Below, piece after piece: positions 29,195 to 30,662 of a stretch of 64,000 nt of DNA. Both the position numbers and the translations under genes were made by a program. Position 1 is the first letter of the stretch, and the number at the start of each line of letters is the position of its first letter. The DNA lies in IMG/VR virus record IMGVR_UViG_3300035698_018106, positions 230,717-294,716 of that record; one strand, written 5' to 3'. Under the pieces are notes generated by a model that was not told the origin of the DNA, did no database searches, and was given only the letters and a program-made list of their open reading frames with translations. The stretch comes from a virus.

Positions 29195-29638
29195 TTAATT
29201 ATCATTTAAATAATCTTCTAATGCTTCTCTGATGGTTGGCTTCCAATCTTTTTTATCAACAAAATGTGTTATAACACTATCAGATACTTCAGTATTTATG
29301 CTTTGCATACCTTCTCCATTTATAACAAAATGACCATTATCATCATATAATAAACAAGGTGCATCTCCTAATTTTGTTAATTCTTCTATAATAAACTCAA
29401 ATGATAATTCCGATTGGTTTATTTTTAACATATGATATATAATTTTAGACAATTCATCTATTCTATGATTTTCTTCAATGCTATATTCTTCTTTAAATTT
29501 ATCCCAAGAATTTTCATATTCATCTAAATATACATATCGTTCTTTACTAAGGGCAGATATAGTATGTTTTGCCGCTATATTTCTTAAATCATCTCCCATT
29601 TTTATTGTTTTTGTAATCCCAGTGGGATTCGAACCCAC
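29195..29638 (-). CDS. hypothetical protein (147 aa)
   Basis: ORF. Confidence 0.4.
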   Translation of the reverse strand: MGSNPTGITKTIKMGDDLRNIAAKHTISALSKERYVYLDEYENSWDKFKEEYSIEENHRIDELSKIIYHMLKINQSELSFEFIIEELTKLGDAPCLLYDDNGHFVINGEGMQSINTEVSDSVITHFVDKKDWKPTIREALEDYLNDN

Positions 29639-29687
29639 GTTTTCCTGGTTTTAGAGACCAGAGCTAAGCCTCTCAGCTATAGGATCA
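29612..29687 (-). tRNA. candidate suppressor tRNA (anticodon CTA, reads UAG)
   Basis: D-arm AGCT-GAGAGGCTT-AGCT, perfect anticodon stem CTGGT/ACCAG with loop CTCTAAA (U33, CTA, A37), T-arm GTGGGTTCGAATCCCAC; acceptor 5' TGATCCT(A) pairs 3' (T)GGGATTA with two G-U pairs and one irregularity. Confidence 0.45.
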
Positions 29688-29842
29688 GAAAAAGATTCTC
29701 AAATTAATGAGAATCTTATGCAATTATTCCTTTAAATGTTGTCATATCTTTAATAAATACATTTTCTTTATAACCTCCGAAATCATACATGAGATTATTA
29801 TTATTTTTATCAATGTAATGGTATCTACTCTTACTAAATATG

Positions 29843-30196
29843 TTAACATTGTTCTTTTTTCTTTTTTACTGTAAGTACAGAAATGATTTTATCTATTTGA
29901 GTTTTAAACTCATTTAATGGATGATTTTCTTCTGGATGTCTATTTTCTATTTGAGAAAAAGATTTTCCTTTTAATAATCCATAAGCAGCATACATAATTC
30001 TTAATTCTTCTCTATTAACAAGATGTTTCCATGCTGCTTCATTATGATGAATAACTCTTTTACCAACTAAATTTTTAGTTTTTCTTTGAGTTTTTAAGAA
30101 TCTTTGCCATTCAACTGCTTTTTTAATGTCAGATTTTAAAAATGTACTTAATTTAATTTCTTCTTTTACTATATTGTTTTCTATTAATTGTTCCAT
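29843..30196 (-). CDS. hypothetical protein (117 aa)
   Basis: ORF. Confidence 0.35.
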   Translation of the reverse strand: MEQLIENNIVKEEIKLSTFLKSDIKKAVEWQRFLKTQRKTKNLVGKRVIHHNEAAWKHLVNREELRIMYAAYGLLKGKSFSQIENRHPEENHPLNEFKTQIDKIISVLTVKKKKEQC

Positions 30197-30308
30197 GATA
30201 TTATTTATTATTTTTGATTAAAATTGTTTAAATATTTTATTCTTATTAAGACAAAAATAATAATCATGGAGGTCTATTATTAATCTACCAATGAGATGTT
30301 TTCATAAC

Positions 30309-30662
30309 TTATTTAATTTTAGTTTGATATTCTTTTAATGCTAATGGTAAGTTAGATGTTAATTTTTTTGACTTTTCTCCTGGTTCCACTACAATTGCAG
30401 TGATTTGGTTATCTATATCAGGTTCTCTAAAGACTGTAGTTTTTAGATTATGATACTTAAATTTTTTAATAAATAATGATAATTGTTCTTCATTTTCTAC
30501 AGATAGAATTATTAAATAATTAGATTTAGTATTCCATTGTTTAGAAATTTCTGGATGTTGATGTTGAAAATCAATTCCAGCATGAGATGATTGAACAGCT
30601 TGATAACCAGGATGAAGATCTCTCCTAGTAATAATAATTAGTTTTTGATGTACCTACTTCAT
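30309..30662 (-). CDS. PTH2-family peptidyl-tRNA hydrolase with in-frame TAG at codon 3
   Basis: reading frame ATG-AAG-TAG-GTA... then uninterrupted 115 codons to TAA; translated KLIIITRRDLHPGYQAVQSSHA ... ISKQWN...LIILSVENEEQL...TAIVVEPGE matches PTH2 signature (VxRxDLxMxxGKxAAQxxHA ... GIGPGP); no in-frame ATG after the TAG. Confidence 0.4.

Follow-up and report, generated by a model that had tools for sequence, protein, structure and literature searches.

The window considered here is a 64,000-nucleotide stretch of viral DNA (IMG/VR virus record IMGVR_UViG_3300035698_018106, positions 230,717 to 294,716) that encodes a protein related to peptidyl-tRNA hydrolase 2 (PTH2) in a reading frame with TAG as its third codon and, adjoining it, an amber suppressor tRNA with the anticodon CUA. 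From the recurrence of this arrangement in related sequences we consider it likely that the tRNA(CUA) and the PTH2-like gene constitute a dedicated module, in which the phage's own suppressor gates translation of the gene. The comparative sequence data indicate that the module is real and deeply conserved, and that it probably represents a form of stop-codon-based translational control that is apparently undescribed.

The gated PTH2-like gene

The PTH2-like gene (30309..30662, minus strand) opens with ATG (30660-30662), AAG and TAG (30654-30656), continues for 114 sense codons and ends in TAA (30309-30311); read from 30662 to 30309 the frame begins ATG AAG TAG GTA CAT CAA AAA CTA ATT ATT ATT ACT AGG AGA GAT. 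The 88 codons after the TAG include no ATG, GTG or TTG, and a full-length product would need read-through of the TAG. The start and stop, ATG AAG TAG followed by a purine (here the G of GTA; 30654..30662, minus strand), form a conserved element that we refer to as the gate.

The product encoded beyond the TAG matches Pfam PTH2 (PF01981) with 37.3 bits against a cut-off of 23, over profile positions 2-112 of 115, and a profile search of the PDB returns Pth2 chains at E = 1e-7 to 5e-6. Its AlphaFold model (predicted local distance difference test, pLDDT, 93.1; predicted template modelling score, pTM, 0.86) has the Pth2 alpha/beta fold, with archaeal Pth2 and human Bit1 as the top Foldseek matches (3erj, 2zv3, 1q7s, 1wn2 and 1xty; template modelling score 0.70-0.76, probability 1.00). 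The domain has 16 invariant columns in an alignment of 25 sequences. The catalytic residues of canonical Pth2 are the Lys of a G-K motif and the Asp of D-A-G; in a hidden Markov model alignment to 24bt_A and 1rzw_A the Lys column is occupied in this subfamily by an invariant Tyr (P-G-Y-Q) and the Asp column by an invariant Glu (E-P-D). The first-pass annotation, made from the letters of the DNA, had described this frame as PTH2-like with TAG as its third codon and no later ATG, which the sequence and the Pfam score bear out. It had also pointed to an intact PTH2 paralog at 53763..54218 (minus strand); this gene is indeed a canonical, ungated PTH2 peptidyl-tRNA hydrolase (Pfam PTH2, 119.5 bits) lying outside the module, and the term paralog applies only loosely, the two products sharing 23% identity.

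An independent ENA assembly (locus L001, 2,009 bp) differs from the window by a few bases and keeps ATG AAG TAG, and the gate is thus not a sequencing error or an assembly artefact. Just past the gene for a major vault protein (MVP)-like product, and about 35 nt ahead of the gated gene's ATG, both sequences contain an AT-rich perfect hairpin with a 12-bp stem, a 6-nt loop and a following T-run (30696..30732, minus strand). A scan for consensus terminators skipped it, as it has fewer than three G-C pairs, but it is probably the terminator of the upstream unit, in which case the gated gene would start a new transcript.

Conservation of the gate

A protein search with the PTH2-like product found 182 relatives at E <= 0.001. 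Gates were surveyed in 13 IMG/VR loci, four huge-phage genomes, 80 metagenome loci (from a total of at least 443 relatives in metagenome contigs), seven loci from species genomes and several isolates. Many of the relatives begin M-[TK]-Q-[IV]-[NH]-x-K-L in the protein databases, the 'Q' in proteins such as P0001 being a result of gene calling with code 15; the contig that encodes P0001 has TAG.

All 13 IMG/VR loci have ATG, one to three sense codons, TAG and then the domain. Of 103 gene copies drawn from more than 100 phage loci, 100 have TAG as the first in-frame stop met on reading upstream from the PTH2-like domain, while among other open reading frames (ORFs) of the same loci TAG accounts for only about one fifth of first upstream stops. 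The TAG sits 2-13 codons before the conserved K-L-x-x-I-T-R-R-D with which the domain starts, and in every gated copy it is preceded in frame, by 1-13 codons and mostly by two, by a start codon, which is ATG except for GTG in phage Myrna. A canonical start between the TAG and the domain is found almost never in the 103 copies. A purine, A or G, immediately follows the TAG in each of the 100 gated copies; the codon there is predominantly ATT, with GTT, GTA, GTC, GTG, ACN, ATA, ATC, AAC and AGC also represented. Two short contigs (L062 and L080) have TAA at the gate position, also behind an ATG leader.

The TAG keeps its one position in homologues with as little as 37% identity and occurs nowhere else in the gene, and conserved Gln residues inside the domain are encoded by CAA or CAG. 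A fixed TAG beside ordinary Gln codons argues that the codon itself is under selection and not an amino acid. A stop fixed at one position, with coding sequence conserved beyond it, is the sequence pattern by which programmed read-through is recognised, and the PTH2-like gene shows it.

The start of the gated gene is partially duplicated in some relatives. In L002 (1930-2691) and L011 (9172-9972) a copy of about the first 25 codons, including ATG-x-TAG, lies just upstream of the gene and runs into a homing-endonuclease-like protein, HNH-like in L002 and of zinc-ribbon type in L011; shorter duplicates are present in L038 (~4261-4335), L045 (~1727-1801) and L072 (~4136-4213). These look like insertions of an endonuclease at the conserved site coding for Y-Q-A-V-Q, and the endonuclease would then share the amber gate.

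The suppressor tRNA

The suppressor tRNA gene, with anticodon CUA, occupies 29613..29686 on the minus strand (ARAGORN, 74 nt), adjoining the gated gene and outside both of the tRNA arrays that ARAGORN finds in the window. It scores 56.4 bits with the Rfam tRNA model RF00005 (gathering score 29) at 29614-29686 and folds as a cloverleaf (z = -3.0). The anticodon loop, CUCUAAA, has seven nucleotides with U33 and a purine at position 37. The tRNA is of class I, with a short variable arm, a G1-U72 acceptor pair and the discriminator A73, and the CCA is not encoded. A terminator-like hairpin of 10 pairs with a T-tail (29692..29717, minus strand) ends 5 nt before the tRNA 5' end. The tRNA, its CTA anticodon and its CTCTAAA loop had all been recognised at the outset, with failure in covariance-model scoring named as grounds for abandoning the recoding hint; ARAGORN, the Rfam score of 56.4 bits against 29 and the cloverleaf confirm the tRNA, with the ends refined to 29613-29686.

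The 68 unique CUA tRNAs linked to the module are likewise all of class I, are 69-78 nt long, and have the CUCUAAA loop in 43 cases. When the window tRNA is aligned with 29 others, 18 of the 19 cloverleaf pairs show compensatory changes and CTA is invariant, while the discriminator base varies across the 30; by these features the tRNAs look functional. They form a diverse set and have not been copied recently from the tRNA-Gln of the phages. The best matches of the window suppressor among the tRNAs of the same phage are those for Val, Ala and Lys, with tRNA-Gln outside the top five; at only 68-70% identity these matches identify no clear parent.

Two special identities were considered for this tRNA and rejected. 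Hallmarks of tRNA-Pyl are the lack of G18G19 and of the T-loop consensus, and a very short variable loop; in the window tRNA the D-loop contains GG, the T-loop is TTCGAAT and the variable region is 6 nt long, all of which argue against this identity, and the 'tRNA-Pyl' label given by ARAGORN reflects the anticodon only. No match resembling pyrrolysyl-tRNA synthetase was seen among the approximately 18 window proteins scanned, the other window ORFs being unscanned and no systematic check having been made. An initiator tRNA that would use UAG as a start is countered by the anticodon stem (C-G, U-A, G-C, G-C, U-A) and the G-U pair at 1-72, as well as by the in-frame start codon ahead of the TAG in every gated copy.

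Linkage of the module components

Among the 34 loci with at least 3 kb of sequence on both flanks, 30 have a tRNA(CTA) gene on the same strand as the PTH2-like gene, mostly 0.2-2.5 kb downstream and occasionally 70-200 nt upstream. Two loci carry a tRNA(TTA) in its place: the TAG-gated L051, about 780 nt upstream of the gene, and Prevotella phage Lak-B5 (MK250024.1), where it lies beside the PTH2-like homologue (locus L119, 4338-4410). The anticodon TTA is of the ochre type and could read both UAA and UAG.

In the window an ORF of 117 amino acids (ORF117; 29843..30196, minus strand) separates the gated gene from the tRNA. It has homologues in 34 loci by tblastn, and where these were spot-checked they also lie between the PTH2-like gene and the tRNA(CTA), making it a possible third component of the module. 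ORF117 and its neighbours of 134 and 219 amino acids match no Pfam or PHROG family.

A separate gene for an HD-phosphohydrolase-like protein is gated too, with ATG, one to three codons and TAG in ten of ten loci (L008 9394-9990, L009 3186-3776, L014, L017 ~21000-21550, L081, L086, L094, L097, L103 and L110). Its profile matches the HD region of class II tRNA nucleotidyltransferase (PDB 3wfo, E = 9e-4) and also phrog_14850. In the cultured phages pT24, CM1 and XacN1 the HD-like domain is fused to the PTH2-like domain behind a single gate. The HD-like gene is absent from the window and from LR756500 (462,018 bp, 24.3% G+C), a genome that shares the module and is the nearest complete relative in the phage collection; the HD-like gene thus belongs to other lineages of the module.

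In several lineages, we note, phage genes for transfer-messenger RNA (tmRNA) are located no more than a few kb from the module (e.g. L011 4930-5284, L014 6367-6718, L118 5588-5946, and others). LR756500 has one at 94511-94921 (L015 36896-37306), 17 kb from its module, and the window has none.

The module in isolates and in cellular assemblies

The module is present in the cultured phages Bxz1, Cane17, Myrna, Phabba, pT24, XacN1 and CM1, of which those with annotation are annotated under the standard code, and it spans phages of Bacteroidota, Actinomycetota and Gammaproteobacteria. The mycobacteriophages Bxz1, Cane17, Myrna and Phabba share a start region of the form TTGACA, 18 nt, TAC(T/C/A)GT, 6-7 nt, ATG or GTG, TAG and GTG, a promoter geometry that fits a leaderless mRNA beginning at the first start codon. 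In all four a tRNA(CTA) follows the hydrolase gene by 130-340 nt. The CUA tRNAs beside the hydrolase gene are at L122 1962-2032 (Phabba, NC_054714.1), L019 3657-3730, L020 3463-3534 and L123 2101-2173, and ARAGORN reads CTA in all of them; the database records call them 'tRNA-OTHER' for Bxz1 and Cane17, tRNA-Ser for Myrna and tRNA-Arg(tct) for Phabba.

Tenacibaculum phage pT24 has ATG AAA TAG ATA followed by the PTH2-like domain fused to the HD-like domain, with an annotated tRNA-Sup 2.5 kb upstream; its coding sequence is annotated from an internal start. Stenotrophomonas phage CM1 and ORF364 of Xanthomonas phage XacN1 have ATG AAG TAG ACC ahead of a fusion of the HD-like with the PTH2-like domain. 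CM1 has no ATG among the first ten codons past the TAG, and in XacN1 ORF364 (L021, AP018399.1, ~243741-244595) the TAG leader lies five codons upstream of the annotated ATG. XacN1 was reported to encode two CUA suppressors for which no target was found, the search having covered only extensions past 18 TAG-terminated genes (PMC5852040). From its sequence, ORF364 is a candidate target for both. The homologue in Lak-B5, a Lak phage reported to be TAG-recoded, is ungated.

Among 185,579 species genomes of cellular organisms the PTH2-like subfamily is found at seven loci, all of them on contigs of metagenome-assembled genomes (MAGs). Six of the seven carry a CUA tRNA, most have other tRNAs as well and one has a tmRNA; five are gated and two are distant and ungated. 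As judged from these sequences the subfamily is essentially confined to phages. The contigs concerned (L112, JBBACR010000001.1, 425 kb, 'Pacearchaeota'; L117, JAOZSQ010000001.1, 427 kb, 'Thermoplasmatota'; and L113-L116 and L118) are filed in GTDB under archaeal or Bacteroidota MAGs. The single contigs of 425-427 kb, L112 and L117, are probably mis-binned huge phages.

A model for suppressor-gated translation

In the model that we favour, the mRNA would open with AUG, one to a few sense codons and UAG. Without the suppressor, host release factor 1 (RF1) would stop translation after a di- or tripeptide and no enzyme would be made; once the tRNA(CUA) is transcribed, processed and charged by a host synthetase, it would read the UAG and allow synthesis of the PTH2-fold enzyme, in an amount that would track the ratio of active suppressor tRNA to RF1. 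The suppressor would act mainly as a translational activator of the PTH2-like gene, with the standard code in use elsewhere in the genome. In other lineages it would also activate the linked HD-phosphohydrolase gene, and ORF117 may provide a third component.

Lys and Gln are candidates for the amino acid inserted at the UAG. Alignment with homologues had been suggested as a way of seeing which amino acid stands opposite the TAG, but this proves uninformative, the readable relatives having a stop there as well (TAG, rarely TAA), except for L059. The gate lies at the extreme N-terminus, outside the conserved domain, so that any inserted amino acid should be tolerated, and its early position means that no more than a di- to pentapeptide would be lost in a failed attempt. 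Amber suppressors of E. coli work best when a purine follows the UAG, and the CUCUAAA anticodon loop favours amber suppression in that organism.

The purpose of such a gate is the weakest step of the proposal. For both the PTH2-like and the HD-like gated proteins the predicted site of action is the tRNA 3' end, and we prefer the view that enzymes hydrolysing tRNA 3' ends would be made only while phage tRNAs are present and charged. Such a dependence would produce a delay in timing or else a loop that limits itself, in which the suppressor serves as a proxy for the pool of charged tRNAs.

A broader proposal, which we regard as possible if somewhat short of probable, is that the amber suppressors of tRNA-rich, standard-code phages are dedicated regulatory RNAs, and neither decoding tools nor simple remnants of a path towards recoding, each wired by one UAG close behind the start codon to a small amber regulon of tRNA 3'-end enzymes, namely a PTH2-like hydrolase and an HD phosphohydrolase. 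If so, synthesis of these enzymes would report on, and perhaps feed back on, the charged phage tRNA pool, and the module would be ancient and mobile. It would explain the orphan suppressors of XacN1 and probably those of Bxz1-like phages, and could be the seed of the full TAG recoding of Lak-type phages.

Several observations weigh against suppressor gating. Codons that might serve as alternative starts are one group: ATT, a rare but permitted start, follows the TAG in most of the AT-rich phages, and the window gene has ATT codons 6-8 codons past the TAG. The HD-like genes and XacN1 have an ATG a few codons past the TAG. In the mycobacteriophages the GTG directly after the TAG is the annotated start and has a Shine-Dalgarno-like motif (GAAGG/GGAGG) 7 nt before it, so that the enzyme could start there without suppression. 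The linkage is also incomplete, in that four of the 34 well-flanked loci lack a nearby CUA tRNA, including two huge-phage loci with 20-kb flanks, and the distant homologues L117 and L118 are ungated yet keep a tRNA(CTA) within about 100 nt. L059, a close homologue, is ungated, with an ordinary start and AAG (Lys) at the gate position. The surveyed loci are not phylogenetically independent, and with Tyr in place of the catalytic Lys and Glu in place of the Asp the chemistry and substrate of the enzyme may differ from those of Pth2.

Some of these points are shared by the main rival to suppressor gating, in which there is no read-through: ATG-x-TAG would be a true upstream ORF of two to five codons, and the enzyme would be made by re-initiation or from an ATT, GTG or ATA start. 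The mini-ORF would itself be regulatory, for instance by giving rise to peptidyl-tRNA drop-off or by sensing it, in the manner of lambda bar, and the tRNA(CUA) would serve some other function. About 70% of copies do have ATT, ATA, ATC or GTG directly after the TAG, the Shine-Dalgarno-like motif of the mycobacteriophages is spaced for the annotated post-TAG GTG, and very short ORFs are known to cause drop-off of peptidyl-tRNA, on which peptidyl-tRNA hydrolases act. However, about a quarter of the copies have GTT, GTA (as in the window), GTC, ACT, ACA, AAC or AGC there, codons that are two bases removed from ATG and do not serve as starts. Any stop would serve to end a mini-ORF, and TAA dominates in AT-rich genomes, yet TAG is used in all but three of the copies. 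The presence of a TAG-reading tRNA in 30 of the 34 well-flanked loci is left unexplained, and the two TAA variants, together with the tRNA(TTA) of L051 and Lak-B5, point to a selected match between codon and anticodon. We consider this alternative unlikely, and retain suppressor gating as the preferred reading of the module.

Genetic code usage

A tRNA(CUA) beside an in-frame TAG could also mean that TAG is reassigned as in code 15, and the first-pass annotation had taken the pair as a hint of this, restricted perhaps to a subset of genes. In the 64 kb of this genome that are visible, and in its relative LR756500, such reassignment is not supported. Under code 11, minus-strand ORFs of at least 80 amino acids cover 66.8% of the window; the figure is 68.5% when TAG is read as sense and 69.0% in the control, where TGA is read as sense. 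The corresponding values for LR756500 (ORFs of at least 100 amino acids) are 81.8%, 82.8% and 82.6%; reading TAG as sense adds no more than 4.2% in any 20-kb bin, and the region of 180-340 kb is already covered to 93-97% under code 11. When long window frames bounded by TAA or TGA and containing TAG were listed, only the PTH2-like gene was convincing, and no other conserved or amber-gated gene with an in-frame TAG was found in the window.

TAG is also used as a stop, contrary to the suggestion that the early genes of the window seem to use TAA and TGA. As called from the sequence alone, the 99 ATG-started minus-strand ORFs of at least 60 amino acids that lie off the tRNAs end in TAA 86 times, TAG seven times and TGA six times; one of the seven TAG-ended ORFs, inside the TROVE gene, is spurious, and each of the seven TAGs has a back-up stop 2-13 codons further on. 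In LR756500, which has one tRNA(CUA), 25 of 486 ORFs of at least 100 amino acids end in TAG (5%). ATG leaders in this genome are somewhat commoner ahead of TAG (12 of 79 cases) than ahead of TAA (21 of 432) or TGA (four of 84), and only the PTH2-like gene has an early TAG without an alternative start; the other TAG-leader candidates in genes have an ATG soon after the TAG, and their reading is ambiguous.

It would still be conceivable that TAG is reassigned in many genes, such as late structural and lysis genes outside the window, and that the PTH2-like gene is simply one recoded gene close to the suppressor. A suppressor tRNA with in-frame TAG is the usual signature of recoding, recoding can be confined to late genes (bioRxiv 10.1101/2021.08.26.457843), and the window has no recognisable virion genes, so that late genes are unsampled in it. 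The relatives of the phage are among the huge phages of Al-Shayeb et al., of which the largest fall in the Mahaphage clade together with the TAG-recoded Lak phages (PMC7162821), and the ENA gene caller used code 15 for L001. Against this stand the lack of a coverage gain in the window and all along LR756500, and the TAGs that terminate six or seven window ORFs and the 25 in LR756500. A sense TAG would be expected to swap freely with its synonyms; instead it is fixed at one position and absent from the rest of the gene. The same combination occurs in cultured phages, the annotated ones under the standard code, and the homologue of Lak-B5, which is reported to be TAG-recoded, has no gate. Al-Shayeb et al. 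found recoding mostly in human- and animal-associated huge phages (PMC7162821). Code 15 is thus very improbable here: the TAG and the CUA tRNA do belong together, with read-through the likeliest account of how the gene is expressed, but as a signal of reassignment the pair does not hold.

Finally, the notion that a second PTH2 is in decay, that its TAG arose recently by nonsense mutation or is an error of assembly, and that the nearby tRNA is unrelated might draw on the canonical PTH2 at 53763-54218 as making the gated copy dispensable and on TAG being one base from CAG and AAG, but it is refuted by the same TAG in an independent assembly and throughout the surveyed loci, by an intact downstream ORF with 16 invariant columns in 25 sequences, and by a model with pLDDT 93.

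Some further LR756500 positions may be in-frame TAGs: 395049 (-), 63661 (-) and 319264 (-), and also 60684, 144464, 264513 and 377751 (-). One candidate is internal to an ORF of 136 amino acids (...HHGFGTAIRNN-TAG-GLWNKESN), and several ATG-x-TAG leaders precede genes with a nearby ATG, including DUF4326-like and dUTPase-like genes.

Genomic setting of the window

The window has a G+C content of 28%, and almost all of its predicted ORFs are on the minus strand. Its distant DNA matches are the uncultured huge phages LR756500, LR756501 and LR756503, of 462-735 kb. ARAGORN identifies 40 tRNA genes, in two arrays with a few isolated genes, and Pfam and PHROG scans recognise no virion genes among the window proteins scanned. 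A promoter scan of this AT-rich DNA did no better than on shuffled sequence.

The gene upstream of the gated gene encodes an MVP homologue of 827 amino acids (30756-33239, minus strand), with an MVP shoulder match of 90 bits and a vault repeat, and is syntenic with the gated PTH2-like gene in 12 loci. The same Pfam and PHROG scans identify a TROVE/Ro60-like protein (24655-26334), an SPFH/flotillin protein (44677-46251) and an RlaP RNA-repair nucleotidyltransferase (59197-60288), all on the minus strand, and NAD-salvage enzymes are also encoded near the gated gene. Vault and Ro components are unusual for a phage, and here they sit among the tRNA genes.

Three tRNA-like genes reported by ARAGORN have 'anticodons' of two or four nucleotides (aa, gaca, ttga; 35610-35681, 38689-38783 and 42270-42344, minus strand), and Rfam adds four tRNA or partial-tRNA matches that ARAGORN missed (5485-5543, 5585-5636, 5819-5890 and 40077-40147). 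The odd tRNA-like genes could have 8-nt anticodon loops, or be intron-bearing tRNAs or decayed copies.

Relation to known systems

In the literature open to searching, with subscription journals lying outside it, we came across no account of a CUA tRNA in linkage with a PTH2 gene that carries a 5' TAG. Two papers report PTH2 genes in jumbo phages and in the tRNA arrays of cluster C mycobacteriophages (PMC7824862, PMC5966550), and neither mentions an upstream TAG or a linked CUA tRNA in its passages on Pth2 and suppressors. The Borges text likewise has no mention of a hydrolase (bioRxiv 10.1101/2021.08.26.457843).

The module offers a concrete candidate target for those suppressor tRNAs of standard-code phages for which no function is known, a problem stated in PMC5852040, and the gate model is open to direct test in culturable phages. 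It also bears on annotation: the genes of Bxz1-type phages, pT24 and XacN1 are called from a downstream start, metagenome catalogues use code 15 or truncate the gene, and a single early TAG beside a CUA tRNA should not count as evidence for code 15. If the model is correct, the module would be a natural pair of cis-linked suppressor tRNA and amber-gated gene, a design that synthetic biologists have built for tight control, and natural context rules could be taken from its sequences, among them the CUCUAAA loop and a purine following the UAG. A divergent PTH2 and an HD domain akin to that of CCA-adding enzymes would both be tied to phage tRNA maintenance, and the module may be relevant to the way in which phages that have full tRNA sets capture or protect translation.

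The suppressors of XacN1 are, like the one described here, CUA tRNAs in an otherwise standard-code phage, now with a 5' target candidate in ORF364. The PTH2-like protein shares fold and Pfam family with archaeal and eukaryotic Pth2 (3erj, 2zv3, 1q7s, 1xty) and is encoded among phage tRNA genes, but it belongs to a divergent subfamily with Tyr for the catalytic Lys and Glu for the Asp.

The prfB gene, for release factor 2, has an early in-frame UGA and is autoregulated through termination efficiency, with escape by +1 frameshifting. Both there and in the module a translation-related gene has an early in-frame stop that acts, or would act, as a sensor of the translation apparatus; prfB senses its own product, whereas here escape would be through a cognate suppressor tRNA from a neighbouring gene. 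The lambda bar minigenes are stand-alone AUG-X-stop ORFs, closed by TAA or TGA, that become toxic when Pth is in short supply; no suppressor tRNA is linked to them. They resemble the gate in being phage ORFs of a few codons tied to peptidyl-tRNA hydrolase activity; unlike bar, which acts on the host Pth, the short ORF here shares its frame with the hydrolase gene, and its stop is specifically TAG.

Recoded phages (Lak, crAss-like, Jade and Agate) carry suppressor-tRNA 'code change modules' (bioRxiv 10.1101/2021.08.26.457843; PMC9523058), in which, as proposed here, a phage suppressor tRNA reads in-gene stops in a host with the standard code, and the stops have been proposed to delay translation until the suppressor is made. 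In those phages, however, dozens to hundreds of genes, including structural and lysis genes, have many in-frame stops and coding density collapses under code 11, whereas here the genome reads as standard code, a single fixed 5' stop is found in one or two genes for tRNA-end enzymes, and the target is linked to the tRNA. The code change module, with its stop-codon gating, is the closest concept to the module described here; prfB is closest in logic, and lambda bar is the closest phage precedent for a short ORF connected with Pth.

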